Below are positions 4,080 through 20,093 of a stretch of 64,000 nucleotides of DNA, in pieces. This DNA is from an uncultured Phycisphaerales bacterium (GTDB lineage: Bacteria; Planctomycetota; Phycisphaerae; Tepidisphaerales; Tepidisphaeraceae), in assembly GCA_963758525.1 (NCBI GenBank), contig CAVWVQ010000003.1:2080001-2144000 (forward strand). Reading direction: 5' to 3'. A program made the translations under genes and the position numbers. The notes beneath the pieces were generated by a model. That model saw only the letters and a program-made list of their open reading frames with translations, had not been told where the DNA came from and ran no database searches. Position 1 is the first letter of the stretch; each line of letters starts with the position of its first letter.

Positions 4080-5762
4080 ATGCCTTCGGATCAATCAACG
4101 CGGGATCGGCGTTTTATCGCCCCGGTGCAATGCGACATCTGCGGGGTGTCGGCGCCGGGTCTGCGCCTGATTAAAGATGTGGCGGGGTCGGGATATTGCG
4201 ATTCGTGCTTTCGGCGGCTGCGGAGCGGAACCGAGGAGATTCCGGAAAGCGACGGGGTTCGATTTCGCTGTTCGACCTGCGGGACTCCAACGAAGCCGCG
4301 CGAGCTGCGGGAACTGGGCGAGCAGTTGATCTGCCGGAAATGCCTGGCGTCAACTTCGGGGGATAGTTCGGCGGGCTCGGTGGCGGGAATGTCGCTGGCG
4401 GGGGCACGGGCTGCCGCCACCGCCGCCAATGCGGCGGAGATCGTGGCGCATCTCGAGGGGCCGCTGCCAGGGAACATTCTTCAGAAGCTGACGTGCCCGC
4501 ATTGCTGGAATGTTTTTCCGCCAGATCAGATCCTGTGGATCTCGCAGCATGCGGAGTTGATGGGAGATCCGGTGCTGGGGGCCGAGGCGCCGGTGCGGTT
4601 TCGGCCCAGCCGGTTTAACGCGCGGGGCGAAGCGCTCGATGGGCGCGACGTGCCGTGCCAGCATCTGGCGTGTCCGCGATGTCATCTGGAGTTGCCGCGG
4701 GCCGTCATCGAGGCTGAGCCGCTGTTCATGTCGATCATTGGAGCGCCCGCCAGCGGGAAATCGCATTTGCTGGCGAGCATGACGTGGGCGCTGCGACGGC
4801 TGCTGCCGGAGAAATTCTCACTGGCGTTCAACGATGCGGACACGCTCTCGAATCACATTCTCGCGGGATATGAGCAGACGCTCTTTTTCGCGGACGACAC
4901 CGATCTGCCGGTGGCGATCCAAAAGACCGAGCTGCACGGCGAACTCTATGACGAAGTGCGCCTCGGCCAGCAGATCATCAGTCTTCCGCGGCCGTTCCTA
5001 TTTACGCTCCGCCACACAGGGCGTGCCATCGGGCAGACGGACGCGGCCCGAATGCGCGTCATCTGCCTGTACGACAACGCGGGCGAGCACTTTCATCCGG
5101 GGATGGACTCGCTGTCGTCACCCGGCACGCAGCACCTGGCCAAGTCGCGCGTGCTGCTGTTTCTGTTCGATCCGACGCAGAACCCGCGCTTCCGCGATCA
5201 TTGCCGAACCTTCAGCTTCGATCCGCAGCTCTACGGCGCATCCCGCACCGAGCGGCAGGAGACGATCCTCACCGAGTCGGCGCAGCGGGTTCGACGATAC
5301 GTCGGGCTCTCCCCACACAAGAAGCACGACCGGCCGCTGCTGGTGATCGTCTCCAAAGCGGATATCTGGGCTCCGCTGCTCAAGGCAAACATCGACACCG
5401 AGCCGCTGGTTTCGGTTGGTGACGGATCGTCGGCCGCGGTCGATCTGCCGCGCATCGAGGAGACGTCGCGCGAGCTGCGGTCGCTGCTCAAGACGTGGGC
5501 GCCGGAGTTCGTGGCGGCAGCGGAAGACTTCTGCAACACGGTGCTGTACGTTCCGGCAAGCGCACTGGGGCGCGGGCCGGAATTGAAGGAGGAGACGGGG
5601 CTGCTGACGATCCGCCCGCGCGACATCCATCCGAAGTGGGTGACGGTGCCGGTGCTGTATATGCTGGCGAAGTGGGCGTCTGGCGTGCTCCCGGCGGTGC
5701 GAGCGCCGCAGGCTGCGAAGGCAAAGGCGTCCGCGCCGGTTCCGTCGCAGCGGAAGCAGTAG
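4080..5762 (+). CDS. TRAFAC-clade GTPase (double-GTPase-2-like) with N-terminal zinc ribbons
   Basis: G1 GAPASGKS, G2-like QKT, G3 YDNAGEHF, G4 VSKAD; CxxC pairs CDIC/CDSC, CSTC/CRKC, CPHC/CPRC. Confidence 0.8.
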   Translation: MPSDQSTRDRRFIAPVQCDICGVSAPGLRLIKDVAGSGYCDSCFRRLRSGTEEIPESDGVRFRCSTCGTPTKPRELRELGEQLICRKCLASTSGDSSAGSVAGMSLAGARAAATAANAAEIVAHLEGPLPGNILQKLTCPHCWNVFPPDQILWISQHAELMGDPVLGAEAPVRFRPSRFNARGEALDGRDVPCQHLACPRCHLELPRAVIEAEPLFMSIIGAPASGKSHLLASMTWALRRLLPEKFSLAFNDADTLSNHILAGYEQTLFFADDTDLPVAIQKTELHGELYDEVRLGQQIISLPRPFLFTLRHTGRAIGQTDAARMRVICLYDNAGEHFHPGMDSLSSPGTQHLAKSRVLLFLFDPTQNPRFRDHCRTFSFDPQLYGASRTERQETILTESAQRVRRYVGLSPHKKHDRPLLVIVSKADIWAPLLKANIDTEPLVSVGDGSSAAVDLPRIEETSRELRSLLKTWAPEFVAAAEDFCNTVLYVPASALGRGPELKEETGLLTIRPRDIHPKWVTVPVLYMLAKWASGVLPAVRAPQAAKAKASAPVPSQRKQ

Positions 5763-5793
5763 ATGCGGAGGAAAGAACCGCGGAAATCATACG

Positions 5794-6524
5794 ATGGCCT
5801 GGGAGCTTTATTACACGTCGGCGCGCGCGGCTTGCGAATCGGGAGCAGGGGGTTCTGCACCGTGGCGCGGACGGAAGGGATGCCGTTGGCGACAGCCGAT
5901 CGGCTTGAATCGCTCAGCGGATATCAGCCGGCCGCGGCGCACGCCAGCAATCCGGCGGGCGCGCCGGCGTTGCTTGCCCATTGGCGTCTTGCGACCCTGG
6001 GACGGCCGCGCAGCGTGCTTTCGCGCGTTGCAATGGGGGGCTCGGATTATTCGGGGCGGCTCAACAAGTTCGCGTATCACTTGATGCTCGAGACTGCCGA
6101 GCAGGCGGCCGCGGGACCGGCGTGGATGCTGGCGCAGCCGGGGATCATGAAGACAACGTGGGAAGGAGAACCGCGCGTGCTACCCCCCTTGAGGTTGTCG
6201 ATTTCCGCCGGGAGCGACGGGTTATCGGACCAGGCGGCGGGCAATTGTCATGCGCGCGTCTTAGCCGATGCATTTGTGGCGGACGCGACAAAATCCGCCT
6301 GCGTCGTCTATCCGCCCGGCGTCGACCCATTGCCGTTGCTGGCGGACGCGCTGGCGCTGTTGGACGCGCGGCTGCGCTGGCAGGTGACCTTCAGCACGTG
6401 CTTCAGCGAGCTGTCGGCGGGGCTGAGTTGCAACTGGCGTTGCATGCCCGCGGGAACCCCCGCCGCGGCTGATGCGGCGCGTCATGCCACCAGCGGTGTG
6501 GTGATCGATCTGACTGCGCACTGA
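5794..6524 (+). CDS. GAP1-N2 (plus GAP1-M-like) domain protein; apparent frameshift near 5825
   Basis: MAWELYYTSA joined by one missing base to RGLRIGSRGFCTVARTEGMP...LESLSGY...DYSGRLNKFAYHL...RWQVTFST matches the GAP1-N2 pattern. Confidence 0.75.
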
Positions 6525-6526
6525 AC

Positions 6527-7546
6527 ATGGTGGATTACAAGGAGATTCCCGAGCTCATCCGCGCCTTCCTGGCCGCCAGCGACTCCGCGGGCCAGCGGGG
6601 GTGGAACGATGAAACCGCTGACCTGGCGGCGTCCTATATCACGCTGGTCAAGGAAGCCAACGACCGGCTGCGGCGCTGCGCCGAATACCTGCAGCGCGGG
6701 ATGCGATCCGAGGCGATTCACCTGGCGGAATGTCAGCCGAGATTGCTCGAACTGGCCGAGGCGCTGCGTCTTCCCGACCCGGCGGTGTGGACGCGCGCCT
6801 GCATGGCGCACGGGCTTCCCCCGCCCCCGGAGTTACTGACCGATGGATTGGACAAGATCGAGGAAGCATTCGGCATCGAGCGCGCCCTCGAGCCGCTGCT
6901 GGCGCGGCATCGGCTGCTGGCGCTGGCGCAGTCGCCTGTGAAAAACCGCCAGGAAGTGCTCCGGGCGGTCTTCGAGCAGGATCCGGAAAATCCGAGTTGG
7001 GACGAAGGGCTGCGCCTGCTAGACGTCGCGCGGTTCAAGGAGCTGCGCGCCGAGGCCAAGGTCGCGTTTAACGCGCATGACCGCGCGGCATTGGAGCGGC
7101 TGGTCGATGAGTTGGAAACGCACCCCCCGCGCGCGGCGGTGCCGGATGATTTGCGGGACGGATTGAACAAGGCGTTGAACTCCGTACGGCTCGAAGCGGC
7201 GCGGAAGCTGCTGTTGCCGCTGCTTGGCGAGCTCGACGCGGCGCGGGCGGCGGGAAATTACGAGGTGGCGACGGAGTTGCTGGGCCGATGGCAGCAAACC
7301 GTGGACGCGGCGAAGGTGGTTTTGCCGCCTGAGCTTCAACAGAAGGTGCGACCGACAATCGTGTGGCTCGCGTCGGAAAGTCATCGACAGGGTGTCGAGC
7401 GAAAGCGCCAAATGATTCAGCCGATCATTCAGACGGGCCAGCGTGACATCAAATCGGTGCAGCGCAATCGCAACCTGCTGATCGGCGGGATCGGCGCTGC
7501 CGCGGCACTCGTTGGCTGGGGCCTCGTACACCTGTTGCGTCATTGA
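6527..7546 (+). CDS. All-helical protein with C-terminal TM, third component of the GTPase/GAP1 operon
   Basis: Starts 2 nt after the GAP1 stop; ANDRLRRCAEYLQRGMRSEA; C-terminal hydrophobic LLIGGIGAAAALVGWGLVHLL. Confidence 0.65.
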   Translation: MVDYKEIPELIRAFLAASDSAGQRGWNDETADLAASYITLVKEANDRLRRCAEYLQRGMRSEAIHLAECQPRLLELAEALRLPDPAVWTRACMAHGLPPPPELLTDGLDKIEEAFGIERALEPLLARHRLLALAQSPVKNRQEVLRAVFEQDPENPSWDEGLRLLDVARFKELRAEAKVAFNAHDRAALERLVDELETHPPRAAVPDDLRDGLNKALNSVRLEAARKLLLPLLGELDAARAAGNYEVATELLGRWQQTVDAAKVVLPPELQQKVRPTIVWLASESHRQGVERKRQMIQPIIQTGQRDIKSVQRNRNLLIGGIGAAAALVGWGLVHLLRH

Positions 7547-7643
7547 GGACGAGGCGCTGGCTGCGCCCGCAACCCAAAGCAAAGAATCTGACCGCGGATG
7601 AACGCAGGGAAAGAGATTGAACCGCTGATAAACGCCGATGAAC

Positions 7644-7905
7644 CCAGCGCTGCCTCGCTTCGCTCGGCCGCAACCAAACGAAGAGCCGCGAAGACGCGAA
7701 GACGCGAAGAGAGACGCGAAGGTAAGAAAATCAAAAATGCGGGATCGAAGCCCAAGGAATTGTGCCTTCGGGTTTCAGGTGCAATTGAATTGTCTTCCTT
7801 CGCGTTTGTCTTCGCGTCTTCGCGTCTTCGCGGCTCTTGATCTTTTGGCTGATCGCCTGCCCGGGAAAATTTGCGCAGCGCGCGAAGATCTCAATGGGTT
7901 GTGAC
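7644..7905 (+). repeat. ~260-bp non-coding module with inverted CGCGAAGA arrays, copy 1
   Basis: Near-identical reverse complement at 15627-15887; partial end at 61708-61769. Confidence 0.85.
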
Positions 7906-7914
7906 GCAGATTGG

Positions 7915-8298
7915 TCAGAGACTTCGTACGATTCGTTTAATGTCCACTTGTGGTTTCCCGAAGTTAATCAAGAGGCAAATGTGAAGGCCGGTCGCCTTGA
8001 GATAGTTGATGCATTGTGCCATGTGGATCTCGTCGAATGACTTCACTACCTTGAGTTCCACGATGACACATCCTTCAACCAACAGGTCCGCGTAATAATC
8101 GCCTGCTACCTCGCCGCGCCACAGGACTGGTATCGGATGCTGCTGCGAAACCGCGAGGCCCACATGACGCCGCTCGATGCGTAAAGCGTTCTCATAGACT
8201 TTCTCCAGGAACCCACTTCCCAGCCCATTGGCAACATCGTATGCGCAACCGATGATCTTCTCAGTGATTTCATTCAATCTGCGTTCATTTGCGTTCAT
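7915..8298 (-). CDS. GxxExxY protein (PD-(D/E)XK nuclease-like family)
   Basis: LGSGFLEKVYENAL, ADLLVEGCVIVELK, Q..NYLKATG..LLINFG. Confidence 0.92.
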   Translation of the reverse strand: MNANERRLNEITEKIIGCAYDVANGLGSGFLEKVYENALRIERRHVGLAVSQQHPIPVLWRGEVAGDYYADLLVEGCVIVELKVVKSFDEIHMAQCINYLKATGLHICLLINFGKPQVDIKRIVRSL

Positions 8299-8572
8299 CT
8301 GCGGTTCCCTTTCTTCTGTTTGGCAAAGCAGTCACACCAGCAGCGGCGTCGCCGACAGCATCGTGAAGAAGTGACGACGAATGCTTGGAGTTTAACGTAG
8401 AGAAGGGAGAGGTTGAACCGCGGATAAATGCCCTGAGGGCTGCCCCCAACGCAAGGCACGAAGGGAGGAAGGAGGGTGCTTGTTAAGAAAACAAGATGTG
8501 ACAATCTTGCTATGCGGGGCAACGACGCAGTATTTCCAGTCGTCCGGCGCCGCCCATTGCCGTGGAAGCGGA

Positions 8573-9895
8573 TCACGCCAGAAGCTGATCGTAGACCTTC
8601 TGGACCTTTTCGACGGTGTGTGCGATGGTGAATTGCTCGCCGACCCGCAGGCGTCCGCGCTCTCCCATCTGCGCCGCCGCCTGCGGGTCGGAGAGCATCT
8701 GACAGATCGCTTCGGCCATCGCCACGGGATCGCCCATCGGAACCAGCAGACCGGTTTCCCCATGCACGACGATTTCGGGAACGCCGCCGCCGTTGGTCGC
8801 CACGACAGGCTTCCCCAGCGACATCGCCTCGATTAATACTTGTCCGAATGGCTCGCCGGTGGTCGAGGCATGAACCAGCAGATCGATGCCCGCCATGTAT
8901 TGCTGAATGTTGCCGCGGAATCCCAGGAAGTCCACGTAGTCCTGCGTGCCGAGCTGGATCGCAAGCTCGCGGACTTCGGTCTCGTATTCTTTTTCATCGA
9001 AGAGCGCCGCGCCGACGATCTGAAACCGCGCCTCGGGAAACCGCCGGTGCGTCCACGCCGCCGCCTGCAGGAAAATGTGCTGACCCTTCCATCGCGTGAT
9101 GCGGCCCACCAGCGCCACGCAAGGGCCCCCGCAGCGCGTCACAGGGCCCTGTTCTTCGGTTGTGGTGCCGGTCCCGGAATCTGGCGCGGTAACGGTTCCG
9201 TCATGCACGACGCGCACGCCCGTGCGCGCGCCGATCGTGTCCCCATCATGCTCGTCCAGGCTGCGGGAGGACTCGATTGCGATGCCCGAGGGAATCGCCG
9301 CCGAACTCTGGGACCGGCGGCGGAGGGTGTTGAGCGTTGCACCGGAATTGGCGATGACCCACGTTGGGATAAACTTGGTCAGCACGCGAAACGCGTAGAC
9401 AACGGGGCTGGGCAGATAGTCGGAGTCGATGCGATCGCGAACGTGCCAGATCACCACCTTGCGGCAAAACCGCGCCGCCAAACCGCCGATGATGTCGGAT
9501 TTGAGAGAATTGGTGTGAACCAGGTCGACGTTCAGCCGGCGGATCCGCCGCGTGACTCCAAACACCGCGAGCAGCGTCTGATGAACTTCGCGAAGCCGCA
9601 GGAGTGACCGGACGCCCAGAGTATCCTTGCGCGCGTGCAGAACGCTGCCGGCAATCGAATAGAGATGCGTCTCGATCCCTGCGTCTTCCAGCTTGACGCG
9701 CAGCGGCCCGTCCTGCAGGAGAAGCACAACCGGGACGTACCGGCTCGTGTCGAGATTCTTGACGAGATTCAGCAGCGCGATTTCGCCGCCTCCCAGCGCG
9801 GCGGTGTGATCGATGTACAGCACGCGCCGGGGCGCGATCGCGTCCGCGACAGGCAACTCCGTTATTCCATCGATCGTTTGCGTCACGCTGCTCAC
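8573..9895 (-). CDS. Glycosyltransferase family 4
   Basis: GGGEIAL, HTNS, VGRITRWKGQ, EPFGQVLIEAM..GKPVV. Confidence 0.92.
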   Translation of the reverse strand: MSSVTQTIDGITELPVADAIAPRRVLYIDHTAALGGGEIALLNLVKNLDTSRYVPVVLLLQDGPLRVKLEDAGIETHLYSIAGSVLHARKDTLGVRSLLRLREVHQTLLAVFGVTRRIRRLNVDLVHTNSLKSDIIGGLAARFCRKVVIWHVRDRIDSDYLPSPVVYAFRVLTKFIPTWVIANSGATLNTLRRRSQSSAAIPSGIAIESSRSLDEHDGDTIGARTGVRVVHDGTVTAPDSGTGTTTEEQGPVTRCGGPCVALVGRITRWKGQHIFLQAAAWTHRRFPEARFQIVGAALFDEKEYETEVRELAIQLGTQDYVDFLGFRGNIQQYMAGIDLLVHASTTGEPFGQVLIEAMSLGKPVVATNGGGVPEIVVHGETGLLVPMGDPVAMAEAICQMLSDPQAAAQMGERGRLRVGEQFTIAHTVEKVQKVYDQLLA

Positions 9896-15367: not shown

Positions 15368-16009
15368 GGCGCTGGCCTCGCCCGCAACCCAAATCAAAGA
15401 ATCTGACCGCGGATGAACGCAGGGAAAGAGATTGAACCGCTGATAAACGCCGATGAACGCAGATTGATCAGAGACTTCGTACGACGCGTTTAACGCCCAA
15501 TTGCAAGTTCCCGAAGTTGATCAAGAGGCAAATGTGAAGGCAGGAACCCACTTCCAGCCCATTGGCAACATCCTATGCGCAGTCGGTGTTCTTCTCAGTG
15601 ATTTCATTTAATCTGCGTTCATTTGTGTCACAACCCATTGAGATCTTCGCGCTGCGCAAATTTTCCCGGGCGGGCGATCAGCCAAAAGATCAAGAGCCGC
15701 GAAGACGCGAAGCCGCGAAGACAAACGCGAAGGAAGACAATTCAATTGCACCTGAAACCCGAAGGCGCAATTCCTTGGGCTTCGATCCCGCATTTTTGAT
15801 TTTCTTACCTTCGCGTCTCTCTTCGCGTCTTCGCGTCTTCGCGGCTCTTCGTTTTGGTTGCGGCCGAGCGAAGCGAGGCAGCGCCGGGTTTATCTGCGGT
15901 TCCCTTTCTTCTGTTTGATAAAGCATTCACACCAGCAGCGGCGTCGCCGACAGCATCGTGAAGAAGTGACGACGAATGCTTGGAGTGTAACGTAGAGAAG
16001 GGAGAGGTT
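15368..16009. mobile_element. GxxExxY cassette, copy 2 (non-autonomous; gene internally deleted)
   Basis: Same flanks as 7553-8414; gene remnant 15468-15622 lacks the ~220 bp equivalent to about 7988-8205. Confidence 0.65.
15627..15887 (-). repeat. ~260-bp module, copy 2 (inverted)
   Basis: Reverse complement of 7644-7905 with few differences. Confidence 0.85.
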
Positions 16010-18546
16010 TGCCGGCGCAGCCTGCGCCAAGTCTTATCTGCGCCCGGCTTTGCCCGTGGCGGAATCCGCACCGGCTTTTTCACCACCGCAGCGCCGATTC
16101 CATCTGTTCCCGCCGCGTCGATCGGCGGATCGAGCGGAAGAATCTTCAGCGATACGACATTCGTCGGGCAGACCTCGACGCACTCCCCGTCCAGATCGCA
16201 TTTGTTGAGATGCCGAAGATCGACCAGGGCCTTGCCGTCGATCATGCGCAACACCCCCTTGTCGCAATGGGCGACGCAGACTTCGCACCCGATGCAGTCG
16301 CGCGTGTCGATGTTCAGTGCCACGCGATACATCTGTCCGTCGGCGGGATCTTCACGAACAAAATTCCCGGTGGGGCTGGCGGTTTCGCGGGAATCATTGA
16401 TCTCAAAATCCGCGTCAAGCTGGTCGAAATGGCCGTGTGACTGCACTTGCACCGTCCCGCGGCGGCGCAAACGGTAGACCGGCTGATTGCAGCTCTCGCA
16501 CAGTTGGAGCTGTTCGAGCTTCTCCAGATACTTGATCGTCGTGCTGACGACGGTCGCGTGAGACCAGGTCAGCGGGCTGACGCTCAGCGGCGCGTTCGTG
16601 TATGGATTCACTTGCTCGGCAAGCACGCCGCTTTCCAGCGCGTGGCCTGCCGTCCATTCGAAGATCGGAATCGCGGCTTTGAGCTCGGCGACGCTTTTGG
16701 CGCACGCGATGTAATAGTCAGCCATCCACAGCGTGCAGATAAACCACGGATTTCCCGGGACGGCCGCGATGTCGCTGCTGATCCGATGATAGTAGTCGTT
16801 TTCGTAGCGCGCCACGCCCCCAACGCGTGTCTTGACCCACAGCTTCTGCTCGACGGCCCGCATCGTCGATTCGACGCGCGGATCTTCGACCTCAAAGAGA
16901 TGAAATTTGAAAATCGCCCAGAGCGAAGCATCCACCGTTTCGTCGACTTCAAAAAGCTCGTCGATCGACGGATCGTGGAGCAGCGGATCTTTTTCCTGAT
17001 AATCGCCCGCGTCCGGCGGCTTGGGAACATCCTTCATCACCAGCCGGCGAACAAACCGGCCAAGCTTCTCGCTGTACAGATATTTCGCGGCTCCCTCTTT
17101 TACTTCCTTCGCGGCCCTGGCGTAGATTTCCGCTTTGACGCGGTCGCCAAAGCAGACGGCAAAGTTGTGTGCCGCTTTGAGCCCGCCATAGACCGTTGCC
17201 ACGGTGAACGCATGAACGCCCCACCGCTCCTCCCACAAGTCGTAGCTGGGAAGCGGCAAACCCGTGCGCGGATCGCGGTAACGGACCATGAAATCCGCCG
17301 CCTTCTGCACCAGGTCCACCCACAGCGGGCGGATGAATTCGATGTCGCGATAGCGGAAATAGTGGCGCCACAGCGCCCAGACGACCAGGGCCGTTTCATC
17401 TTCCTGAATCGGCATCGCCCGGTTGCCCTTGAGCACCCACGGATGCCAGCTTGAGGCTGGCGAACCGTCCGGGTTGTACTTGTGATAGAAATAACCCTCG
17501 TCGGTGAGCACGTCGCTGCAGAATTTGTAGAACCATCGCGCGATGTCGGGGAAGCCCGCCATATCGAGTGAATTCGCGACCAGCGCCCCGTCGCGCGGCC
17601 ACATATAGGAATAGGTGTCGCGCGAGAACTGCATGATGTCCGAGTCATTGGCGGCAATGATCGCGCCGCCGTTGTCGATCTGCGTGCGCAGCACCAGCAG
17701 CGAACGCTTGAAGAGCTCGACCACTTTCTGCGGGAGGTTGCCGAAATTGATGTTGGTCCCGCCCGCCCAGAGCCGCCAGTAGCTGCTCGTGCGATCCACC
17801 ACGCCCTGCGGTCCCATCTTCGCCAGCCAGTTGTTGAGTTCGAGCAATTCATCGCGCGACTTGCCCGCCATGATGATCATGTAGACGTTCTGCTCAGCCT
17901 CGGGGGCGAGCGGGACGTGCAGCGAGATGGTTGAATCGACCGAGCCCTGTGCGATCGGGTTGCCCTGCAGATGCCCGTCTTCCGCGTCACGGTAGGTTCC
18001 CTCAGCTCCGTTAAACCCACTTTTCCCCGTCGCATATTCGTCGATGCGCTGTACGGCATCGGCGTGAAACGTGATCATCAAATATCGCTTGGCGCGATAA
18101 TGCACCATGCCATTCAGCTCGGGATCGAAGTAGGCGGTGTCGCCCACTTTCGTGCCAAACATGCTGAAATCGTTGTGATGCATCACCTTGGCGACGCGGG
18201 CGTGCGGAGCAAGATTCTTGATCTTGATCTTGCGGATCAGGATGTTGCGATGGAAATCGACGACGTCGTTGCAGTAGAGCGCCAGCCGAAGCTCGCGATG
18301 ATCGAGGCTGACGCTGGTGGTGAGCGTGTCGCGCAGATACCGCTGCCGGACGTTCCACCCGTCGCAGCTCCACGCCAGCAGCGAGCGCTGCTGCCCCGGA
18401 ACATCGCAGTAGACGCCAAAATGGCACGGCCCAGCGCCGGCGTGATTCTCCTGCCCGACGTGAGGAAAATACAGATCGCGAATCTGGTACTGATGATCGA
18501 AGTTAACGAGCAGTTGCCCGTTGCCGACCGGAATATCTCGTGGCAT
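15805..18546 (-). CDS. Glycoside hydrolase family 15 fused to a C-terminal 2x[4Fe-4S] ferredoxin-like domain (true stop may be earlier)
   Basis: MPRDIPVGNG, YSYMWPRDG, QEDET, YDLWEER, LAEQ..PLTWSHA; then CIGCEVCVAHC and CDLDGECVEVCP. Confidence 0.85.
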   Translation of the reverse strand: MPRDIPVGNGQLLVNFDHQYQIRDLYFPHVGQENHAGAGPCHFGVYCDVPGQQRSLLAWSCDGWNVRQRYLRDTLTTSVSLDHRELRLALYCNDVVDFHRNILIRKIKIKNLAPHARVAKVMHHNDFSMFGTKVGDTAYFDPELNGMVHYRAKRYLMITFHADAVQRIDEYATGKSGFNGAEGTYRDAEDGHLQGNPIAQGSVDSTISLHVPLAPEAEQNVYMIIMAGKSRDELLELNNWLAKMGPQGVVDRTSSYWRLWAGGTNINFGNLPQKVVELFKRSLLVLRTQIDNGGAIIAANDSDIMQFSRDTYSYMWPRDGALVANSLDMAGFPDIARWFYKFCSDVLTDEGYFYHKYNPDGSPASSWHPWVLKGNRAMPIQEDETALVVWALWRHYFRYRDIEFIRPLWVDLVQKAADFMVRYRDPRTGLPLPSYDLWEERWGVHAFTVATVYGGLKAAHNFAVCFGDRVKAEIYARAAKEVKEGAAKYLYSEKLGRFVRRLVMKDVPKPPDAGDYQEKDPLLHDPSIDELFEVDETVDASLWAIFKFHLFEVEDPRVESTMRAVEQKLWVKTRVGGVARYENDYYHRISSDIAAVPGNPWFICTLWMADYYIACAKSVAELKAAIPIFEWTAGHALESGVLAEQVNPYTNAPLSVSPLTWSHATVVSTTIKYLEKLEQLQLCESCNQPVYRLRRRGTVQVQSHGHFDQLDADFEINDSRETASPTGNFVREDPADGQMYRVALNIDTRDCIGCEVCVAHCDKGVLRMIDGKALVDLRHLNKCDLDGECVEVCPTNVVSLKILPLDPPIDAAGTDGIGAAVVKKPVRIPPRAKPGADKTWRRLRRQTSPFSTLHSKHSSSLLHDAVGDAAAGVNALSNRRKGTADKPGAASLRSAATKTKSREDAKTRRETRR

Positions 18547-18662
18547 CAGGAACCTGCCTGCAAGTGCGCACCGTCGTTCGCCACATGGCCCCAAGTTATC
18601 GGGCGCCTTGCCGCTTTGGTTATTGGTATTTCGACCGCTCTTCCCCGCCGACTTGAATCCGT

Positions 18663-20093
18663 CTACACGCGAAGCGTAAACGCTTCCTGCAACTGATCTC
18701 GATAGCGCTCGCGGATCGGCGCCACCACGTCGGCAATAAAACGTGTCACCTGTACCGAAGAGCGTCCGGTGAACGCCGACGGGCTCAATACCTCGTCCCA
18801 CTTGATCCGCGAGAACGCGGGATCACTTCGCAGCCGCGAAATCAGGTCATTCTCCCTGCCGTACATTTTCACCTGCTCGCTGGCGGCCAGTGAGTGATTG
18901 CGAATCACTTCGTGCAGCACCTGACGATCGCCCCCGCCGCGCACGCCCGCCATCAGGATTTCCTCGGTTGCCATAAATGGCAATTCCGCGGCAACCGCGG
19001 CCGCGATGGTCTTTGGATAAACAACCAGCCCGCGCACCACATCGATGACGATCTGCAGGCAACCGTCCAGCGCCAGGAACGCCTCGGGGATGCTCAGCCG
19101 CTTGTTGGCCGAGTCATCCAGCGTCCGCTCGAACCACTGCTCGGCAGCGGTCTGCAACGGCGAGGTCGACAGACTGATGACAAATCGCGCCAGCCCCGTC
19201 GCCCGCTCGCAGCGCATGGGATTGCGTTTGTACGCCATCGCGCTGGAGCCGACTTGCTCTTCCTCGAACGGCTCCTCGATCTGCTTCATGCCCGCCAGGA
19301 GACGAATGTCATTGCAGAATTTATGGACGCTCGCGGCTGCATTGGCCAGGGCGGAGACAATCTGCGCATCAATTTTGCGCGGATACGTCTGCCCCGTAAC
19401 CGCAAAAGACTCGGCGAACCCGAACTTCTGCGTCACCATCCGGTCGAGCCGATCGACCTTGTCATGATCTGAATCGAAGAGCGAGAGAAACGACGCCTGC
19501 GTGCCGGTCGTTCCCTTGACGCCGCGGAAGCGCAGCGTGGCAATGCGATGCTCGATCTCCTCCAGATCGATCGCCAGGTCCTGCGCCCAAAGGCTTGCGC
19601 GCTTGCCGACGGTGGTGAGCTGGGCCGGCTGAAAGTGCGTGTAGCCCAGCGTGGGCAGGTCCTTCCACTTTTGGGCAAATGTCCCCAGCGCGTCAATCGC
19701 GCTGGCAAGACGACCCGCCACGAGTTGCATCCCCTCGCGCATGATGATCAGCTCGGCGTTGTCCACGACGTATTGCGACGTCGCTCCAAGATGAATGATC
19801 CCGCGTGCCGCCGGCGCAATTTCCTCGTACGTCGCGATATGTGCCATCACATCATGCCGTTTGCGCCGCTCCCATTCCGCGGCCTTCGCGAAGTCGATCT
19901 GGTCGACGGCTGCCTCCATCTGCGTCAGCGCCTCTTGCGTGATCCGTGTCAGCCCCAGCTCGCGCTCGCATCGCGCCAATTCCAGCCACAGCCGCCGCCA
20001 AAGGCCGAACTTATGCTGCGGCGAAAACAGCCGCAGCATCTGCGGGCTCGCGTTGCGGGAGACCAGCGGCGATTCGTAAGTGTCATGAGCCAT
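18663..20093 (-). CDS. purB: Adenylosuccinate lyase
   Basis: HDVMAH, IHLGATS, GYTHFQPAQ, GSSAMAYKRNP. Confidence 0.95.
   Translation of the reverse strand: MAHDTYESPLVSRNASPQMLRLFSPQHKFGLWRRLWLELARCERELGLTRITQEALTQMEAAVDQIDFAKAAEWERRKRHDVMAHIATYEEIAPAARGIIHLGATSQYVVDNAELIIMREGMQLVAGRLASAIDALGTFAQKWKDLPTLGYTHFQPAQLTTVGKRASLWAQDLAIDLEEIEHRIATLRFRGVKGTTGTQASFLSLFDSDHDKVDRLDRMVTQKFGFAESFAVTGQTYPRKIDAQIVSALANAAASVHKFCNDIRLLAGMKQIEEPFEEEQVGSSAMAYKRNPMRCERATGLARFVISLSTSPLQTAAEQWFERTLDDSANKRLSIPEAFLALDGCLQIVIDVVRGLVVYPKTIAAAVAAELPFMATEEILMAGVRGGGDRQVLHEVIRNHSLAASEQVKMYGRENDLISRLRSDPAFSRIKWDEVLSPSAFTGRSSVQVTRFIADVVAPIRERYRDQLQEAFTLRV

Follow-up and report, generated by a model that had tools for sequence, protein, structure and literature searches.

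Within a 64,000-nucleotide stretch of DNA from an uncultured Phycisphaerales bacterium (assembly GCA_963758525.1, contig CAVWVQ010000003.1, positions 2,080,001 to 2,144,000; hereafter the window), three adjacent genes at positions 4080 to 7546 encode a TRAFAC GTPase, a GAP1 protein and an unnamed all-helical protein with a predicted C-terminal transmembrane (TM) segment. All three genes were confirmed as real and are conserved together. Both GTPase and GAP1 are members of described families, those of the GAP1-N2 DO-GTPase ("GTPase-centric") systems (Kaur, Burroughs, Iyer and Aravind 2020, eLife 9:e52696, PMC7159879), and the trio is a variant of these systems rather than a canonical member, because it comes without GAP1-C, without an FNIII component and without an effector. 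Its minimal form is the property of a whole clade, which does without the TM segment and ectodomain of GAP1, the ectodomain of about 620 residues of the helical protein and the GYF partner gene. Our best explanation, held tentatively and drawn from sequence, is that the trio may be a membrane-tethered GTP switch which would dock via captured zinc fingers onto putative partners encoded elsewhere. The features of the system are the following.

4080..5762, forward strand (+): DO-GTPase2-type TRAFAC GTPase, 560 aa (PF19993 and G motifs)
4131..4208, forward strand (+): finger A of the GTPase, predicted treble-clef (C18/C21/C40/C43), a diverged copy of a family-wide module
4269..4343, forward strand (+): finger B of the GTPase, predicted treble-clef (C64/C67/C85/C88)
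4494..4685, forward strand (+): conserved core zinc-binding region of the GTPase (C139, H141, C142, C198 and C201 invariant)
G motifs of the GTPase, forward strand (+): G1 at 4740, G2 Thr near 4926, G3 with Glu at 5070, G4 at 5352, G5 at 5559
5794..6524, forward strand (+): GAP1 limited to the N2 and M domains, 243 aa with the break read through (profiles; one base missing behind 5823)
6527..7546, forward strand (+): unnamed all-helical protein, 339 aa, predicted C-terminal TM segment at about 7475-7531, without ectodomain here

The window is part of contig C3 of a 6.47-Mb genome in six contigs, in which each of the three genes is single-copy. As an initial annotation of the sequence had described, the genes are tightly spaced: the three open reading frames (ORFs; 4080-5762, 5794-6524 and 6527-7546) lie on the same strand with intergenic gaps of 31 and 2 nt. 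The same annotation had named beforehand a lack of co-conservation elsewhere as a reason to abandon the proposal, and the neighbourhood survey found the trio, with its order kept, in related loci. The comparison of codons with those of a close relative, L035, gave more synonymous than non-synonymous changes in all three genes (195/84 for the GTPase, 83/47 for GAP1 and 123/60 for the helical gene); in this relative about 830 bp, including a 176-aa ORF (L035:4421-4951), lie between the GTPase and GAP1. Promoter and terminator scans of the locus gave results at chance level.

The assignment of the first gene to the TRAFAC GTPases was borne out by intact G1 to G5 motifs. The motifs GAPASGKS (G1), YDNAGE (G3) and SKAD (G4), as read earlier from the sequence, were located at residues 221, 331 and 425, respectively, G2 is an invariant KT and G5 is SALG. 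The residues of G1-G4 are invariant across 66 aligned GTPases, and so is the Walker-B glutamate E336 within YDNAGE. The match to the DO-GTPase2 profile PF19993 (E 3.6e-5, 24 bits) lies just below the cut-off of 27, which is exceeded by the relatives P0054 and the GTPase of L034, and a sequence search of the PDB returned weak P-loop matches to EngA/Der only. The three N-terminal pairs of CxxC motifs that had been counted are all present (residues 18/40, 64/85 and 139/198), but their common reading as extra zinc ribbons did not hold: the third pair is the conserved core ribbon of the GTPase, with its motif in 116 of 121 GTPases, and the other two model as treble-clef fingers.

The second gene had been described as a GAP1-N2 gene hidden by a frameshift, with a profile match set as the test. 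The frame 5763-6524 matched both GAP1-N2 (PF20013, E 1.2e-20) and GAP1-M (PF20014, E 3.2e-10) above cut-off, and the profile scan found no match to GAP1-C either in this protein, which stops at the end of GAP1-M, or in the long GAP1 proteins of related loci that were scanned. In the assembly the ORF is split over two frames; written with an X at the break, the protein has 243 aa, the same length as the intact GAP1 of L035, with which it shares 79.5% identity from end to end. The gene is likewise intact in L037 and L038. In run X1, a 246-bp contig over 5666-5910 carries one substitution and one extra base behind 5823, an item of evidence that consists of a single contig of depth 2.3 and may derive from the window's own sample. 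Since this extra base restores the frame of the intact relatives L035, L037 and L038, and since the synonymous excess persists after the break, the break is most likely an assembly error, and at most a very recent allele. A PDB sequence search with GAP1 returned nothing significant, and sequence and feature searches gave no DENN match. Seven of the listed homologues (P0054, P0055, P0061-P0064 and P0070) are GTPase-GAP1 fusions, with a GAP1 part of 270-309 aa.

The third gene encodes, as had been proposed, a helical protein ending in a TM segment: the structure model is all helix (predicted local distance difference test, pLDDT, 90.7) and a hydrophobic stretch at residues 317-335 is predicted to cross the membrane. 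The protein is nameless in Pfam, NCBIfam, PADLOC and Atlas and had no Foldseek match at E 0.001. In a wide fold search the best match reached Z 8.6 at a root-mean-square deviation (rmsd) of 21, and the others were generic three-helix bundles, MIT-like 2crb (Z 6.5) and 2a9u (Z 7.2), all too weak to use. Its relatives include 26 proteins of similar length (query included) and 37 long ones of 957-1048 aa, each with a predicted TM segment (residues 338-355) that is followed by about 620 further residues. The family was found in 26 of 401 genomes of the phylum, and 25 of these 26 hold GAP1-N2, adjacent on one contig in 22 cases; because of this association the helical protein is, judged by its distribution, the constant third part of a planctomycete GAP1-N2 subtype. 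Among the 36 GAP1-N2 genomes of the phylum, 11 gave no match to the helical family. The protein is unnamed in the portions of Kaur et al. (2020) considered here; the figures and Figure 1-source data 1 of that paper may already show it or this architecture.

The copy in the window had been called minimal, and this was confirmed for a whole clade. In long-type planctomycete loci the GTPase, GAP1 and helical protein are often followed by a GYF-pair/TM or GYF-pair/trypsin gene, GAP1 mostly measures 715-980 aa with a TM segment and ectodomain, and the helical protein mostly 850-1090 aa. In the minimal loci (the window, L019, L020, L035, L037, L038, L042 and L128; locus L019 and genome G069 yield the same protein) GAP1 measures 234-287 aa and the helical protein 290-344 aa, that of L128 showing no TM segment, and the GYF gene is absent in all seven loci with at least 1 kb downstream. 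The short architecture recurs in at least eight loci, down to about 50% identity. In a GTPase tree of 80 rows, rooted at its midpoint and with L128 at the end of a long branch, the six minimal loci included and the seven fusions fall in one 38-row clade with a support of 100/100, which is nested among long-type loci. Excluded from this tree were 11 P rows that are near-duplicates or truncated, P rows without the core and GTPases split between frames. Ectodomain loss likely happened more than once, because intermediates (L011, L047, L125 and L126), in which a long GAP1 goes with a helical protein of 378 aa, fall elsewhere in the tree.

Some long-type loci add kinase, Tad and prepilin-peptidase, or MotA/ExbB genes. 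In a subclade of eight (L016, L024, L026, L027, L028, L050, L053 and L055) a kinase-like gene lies upstream, and Tad/TadE, prepilin peptidase A24 and PilT-like ATPase genes lie downstream, which suggests that this subclade is linked to a pilus. A MotA/TolQ/ExbB gene is found downstream of other long-type loci (PF01618, E 1e-10 in L017), together with ExbD-looking sequences as we read them (L017:14382-15389, L023:6968-8760, L032:10275-13150, L051:9879-10406 and L059:9618-10472).

The two extra zinc modules of the GTPase had been proposed as a sensor or as an effector-docking part. The finger pair is modelled as a hairpin-plus-helix twice (pLDDT 83), and its fold matches are weak, mainly to treble-clef folds with LIM foremost. 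In 121 GTPases, consisting of the window GTPase and the best 120 of 773 matches and hence biased to close relatives, two extra fingers were counted in 37, one in 42 and none in 37, with the core motif missing in five; four of the 42 one-finger proteins are truncated two-finger proteins, and the finger profiles exclude four mis-paired truncated fingers (P0038, P0042, P0048 and P0052). Both fingers are present in all six minimal loci with a visible N-terminus (in L128 by CxxC count) and in none of the 31 long-type loci scored for both, the duplicate loci L012, L022, L052, L138 and L140 being excluded. Furthermore, the N-terminal slot of the L034 GTPase gave a weak GYF_2 match (E 0.0024), and in L045 finger A stands beside GYF_2. 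The extra zinc modules are a variable slot with 0, 1 or 2 fingers and, as far as sequence comparison can tell, likely a protein-docking part. Docking is the part of the earlier proposal that stood; evidence of sensing was not found, and as copies of a host module present throughout the bacterial family the fingers fail two of the tests that Kaur et al. (2020) set for an effector-associated domain (EAD), as discussed below.

The finger-pair profile matched in 127 of the 141 genomes of the bacterial family (70 of the 72 of high quality), a count that includes matches on GTPases and in which G004 (unpublished) counts as one, compared with 27 of 141 for the GTPase; among the 401 phylum genomes it matched in nine. 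The full search gave 1925 clusters at E 0.001 or better, and of the best 150 finger proteins 137 have at most 260 aa and 112 end in a predicted TM segment. Because the pair is this widespread and resides mostly on small TM proteins, the GTPase has likely captured a lineage-wide host finger module. The stand-alone double-finger TM proteins are possibly a core, unstudied family: their genes had no conserved neighbours across 30 loci, and a literature search found nothing on a zinc-finger membrane protein in Tepidisphaer- taxa. Two finger-finger-TM proteins of the window's genome (G000), encoded at C3:1298011-1298436 (L062) and C4:162277-162813 (L061), matched no family above cut-off. In the same genome a 983-aa protein (C3:3404455-3407406; L063:6456-9407) combines a zinc ribbon, finger B, a TM segment and a trypsin-like C-terminus (weak Pfam matches); its relatives occur in 45 of the 141 family genomes, including 16 of the 27 with the GTPase. 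A family with finger A, a TM segment and an ectodomain adjoins the system elsewhere (L017:2412-3993, L023:8757-10274, L045:7942-9522 and L130:4187-5800).

According to our preferred explanation, the GTPase, GAP1 and the helical protein would together form a GTP switch that is held at the cytoplasmic membrane, on its inner face. GAP1 would bind the GTPase and control its nucleotide state, the helical protein would be the membrane scaffold that tethers both, and the captured fingers would bind the same kind of partner as the host finger-TM proteins do, cytoplasmic and encoded elsewhere. By analogy with the zinc finger and GYF of GltJ (see below), the fingers may replace the lost GYF and ectodomain links, and the switch would act by controlling some process of the membrane or envelope, and not through a toxic effector of its own. 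We base this proposal on the invariant motifs, the synonymous excess, the GTPase-GAP1 fusions, the link between the helical family and GAP1-N2 and the clade with both fingers, and also on the family-wide finger pair, the GYF_2 match in the finger slot, the motor and pilus links of the long-type loci and the GltJ precedent.

Several observations weigh against it. The trio can come apart, as documented by orphan GTPases in L015 and L137, an orphan helical gene in L039 and L043, where the GTPase is followed directly by the helical gene without GAP1. The GTPase is patchy (27 of 141 family genomes) and the flanks of the system are unconserved, both of which fit defence genes equally well. Two-finger GTPases exist outside the clade (P0072, P0118, P0136 and P0140), and the fingers of the window have diverged from the consensus of the stand-alone proteins, so that their ligand may have changed or been lost. 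The 983-aa finger-B/TM/trypsin-like protein, a candidate partner, was not found in the minimal-type genomes G069 and G086, and in the minimal clade neither motor nor pilus genes are linked to the system.

The main rival of the switch is an anti-invader decoy, in which the fingers would mimic a host membrane protein, an invader protein targeting that module would be caught by the GTPase, and GTP loading would cluster the single-pass helical protein, resulting in membrane harm or a growth halt. We consider it rather unlikely, even though a conflict role and the use of host domains as decoys are proposed in the text of Kaur et al. (2020), the distribution of the system is patchy and the fingers, copies of a host module that is nearly universal, show weaker conservation than the core of the GTPase (38% versus 67% to L019). 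No part of the system matched PADLOC and no enzymatic effector was found; the flanks in the window look, from reading their sequences, like glycosidase and glycosyltransferase genes and not like a defence island; all 37 long helical relatives keep the ectodomain of about 620 aa, unlike a swapped effector; and a literature search, of which the 2020 paper was the only relevant return, found no experimental test of DO-GTPase/GAP1 systems. Plant immune receptors use integrated decoys, and the effector-less three-gene unit might carry its captured LIM-like double finger as one, such that an invader would trip the switch and the helical protein would cluster; we regard this narrower form as improbable. 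With neither a PADLOC match nor an enzymatic effector, a defence role is neither shown nor excluded.

In its strict form, the docking idea of the initial annotation would make the fingers EADs that bind like with like and in this way recruit effectors which carry such fingers and are encoded apart from the system, a possibility to which we give little credence. It is in line with the place of one copy at the terminus of a core component (GTPase residues 18-88), with three other finger-bearing proteins in the genome and with the finger-A/TM/ectodomain gene that adjoins the system in L017, L023, L045 and L130. The stand-alone copies, however, do not track the core system (127 versus 27 of 141 genomes), and adjacent copies are not the closest to the GTPase fingers, ranking 31 and 30 of 34 in L017 and L130; those of the window's own genome rank 12 and 22 of 30 for finger A and 17 and 30 of 30 for finger B, with no special closeness. 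Moreover, most stand-alone proteins, at no more than 260 aa, are too short for an effector domain, and the adjacent finger-A family was not found in the window's genome. Strict EADs were rejected on two of these grounds, co-occurrence and sequence closeness. That the trio is a decaying remnant of a larger envelope system which lost its outer parts, a pseudogene cluster with a true frameshift, we hold to be very unlikely, and the least probable of these explanations. The break is present in the assembly, orphan and partial loci exist, and the one contig of depth 2.3 is the sole read-level evidence for the extra base, but that base restores the exact frame of three intact relatives, the synonymous excess of GAP1 continues after the break, the short architecture recurs in the minimal loci, and comparable splits of these genes occur in other genomes with few contigs.

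A GxxExxY nuclease cassette had been noted immediately downstream. Two features are found on this side of the trio.

7630..7917, no strand: dispersed repeat of about 280 bp, outside the system (149 blastn matches)
7915..8298, reverse strand (-): GxxExxY (PD-(D/E)XK) gene (TIGR04256, E 2e-40)

The GxxExxY gene lies 369 nt past the trio on the opposite strand. It was found in none of 67 related loci, and it is absent at the site in L037, where 30 bp separate the stop of the helical gene from the end of the next gene, the orthologue of the window gene 8573-9895 (68% identity and the best genome match). As a candidate effector it was rejected for these reasons. The 149 matches were returned by a blastn search of 7547-8572 against the genome, 23 of them with at least 200 bp at 85% identity or more, and GxxExxY paralogues and fragments are spread over the genome. 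The repeat beside it, the genome-wide paralogues and the absence from the 67 loci and from L037 identify the gene as an insertion outside the system. Copies of the repeat lie at 7590-8320 and about 15620-15926 of the window, several copies carry GxxExxY gene ends, and short imperfect inverted tracts flank the GxxExxY gene; gene and repeat together look like a small mobile unit.

Elsewhere in the window, two overlapping ORFs at 3-431 and 401-1663 look like one frame-broken gene, perhaps another indel error, which we take to be glutaminase-like (NCBIfam gave no match), and a 998-aa ORF at 15805-18801 (-) looks, from reading its sequence, like a glycoside hydrolase that carries a ferredoxin-like Cys cluster at its C-terminus. 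Outside the window, at L045:9684-12174, a damaged system stands beside genes that look like a patatin and a nucleotidyltransferase, as in a cyclic oligonucleotide-based antiphage signalling system (CBASS).

DO-GTPase/GAP1 systems are for the most part large assemblies at the membrane, encoded by many genes. The trio, a naturally occurring form with three proteins of 560, 243 and 339 aa, of which two are soluble, is a practical chassis to study the action of GAP1 and to set defence against regulation. The analysis also exposed two unnamed families: the helical TM protein, which is the constant third component in planctomycetes, and a membrane protein with a pair of zinc fingers that is near-universal in the genomes of the bacterial family.

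The text of Kaur et al. (2020) reports one or two N-terminal ribbons in 60% of DO-GTPases, names an FNIII-repeat protein as the third component of GAP1-N2 systems and the helical GASH as that of GAP1-N1 systems, and describes planctomycete relatives coupled to GYF-pair/trypsin or GYF-pair/TM genes. Like the GAP1-N2 systems, the window has a TRAFAC GTPase with a Walker-B Glu and N-terminal zinc modules, a GAP1 with N2 and M domains downstream of it (fused to it in relatives) and a TM component. Unlike those systems, as far as that text describes them, it lacks GAP1-C, the FNIII-repeat protein, the variable effector and the GYF gene, its third gene encodes an all-helical TM protein, and its GTPase has two extra treble-clef-type fingers that are shared with stand-alone membrane proteins. 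The three-gene unit leaves no room for an FNIII component, and no FNIII family was found in 31 scanned proteins of related loci; no variable effector was found, fused or adjacent, and the flanks are not conserved among loci.

The tandem four-ligand fingers, each modelled with hairpin and helix, may resemble LIM and other treble-clefs (RING, GATA, FYVE, the zinc-binding domain of ClpX, DksA/TraR), which dominate the matches of the pair. The LIM matches of the pair are weak (Z 3.8 with rmsd 8.6 over 62 aligned residues, E 0.039; PF00412, E 0.23), as are its treble-clef fold matches overall (E 0.03 or worse). LIM domains have a His ligand in finger 1 and a two-residue spacer; in the pair described here, in contrast, all eight ligands are invariant Cys and the linker of about 20 residues is long and variable.

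An experimentally tested precedent for the manner of working, and for this only, is GltJ of Myxococcus xanthus, a membrane protein with a zinc-finger/linker/GYF switch. On the side of the cytoplasm, its zinc finger and GYF dock the GTPase-cycle proteins MglA/MglB to an envelope motor, according to the portions of Attia et al. (2024, Sci Adv, PMC11135422) considered here. The long-type loci similarly carry GYF, finger and ExbB/MotA-like genes. The GTPase family is different, however, the minimal clade has no motor genes, and the zinc module of GltJ, a beta-hairpin ribbon, belongs to the membrane protein itself, whereas the fingers described here have a predicted C-terminal helix and reside on the GTPase. 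The helical protein, finally, is comparable to GASH as an all-helical constant third component beside GAP1. GASH was not among the 25 of 45 weak families listed for 42 helical members, none of which matched more than five of the 42, and, unlike GASH, which the text of Kaur et al. (2020) places with GAP1-N1, the helical protein accompanies GAP1-N2 and ends in a predicted TM segment.

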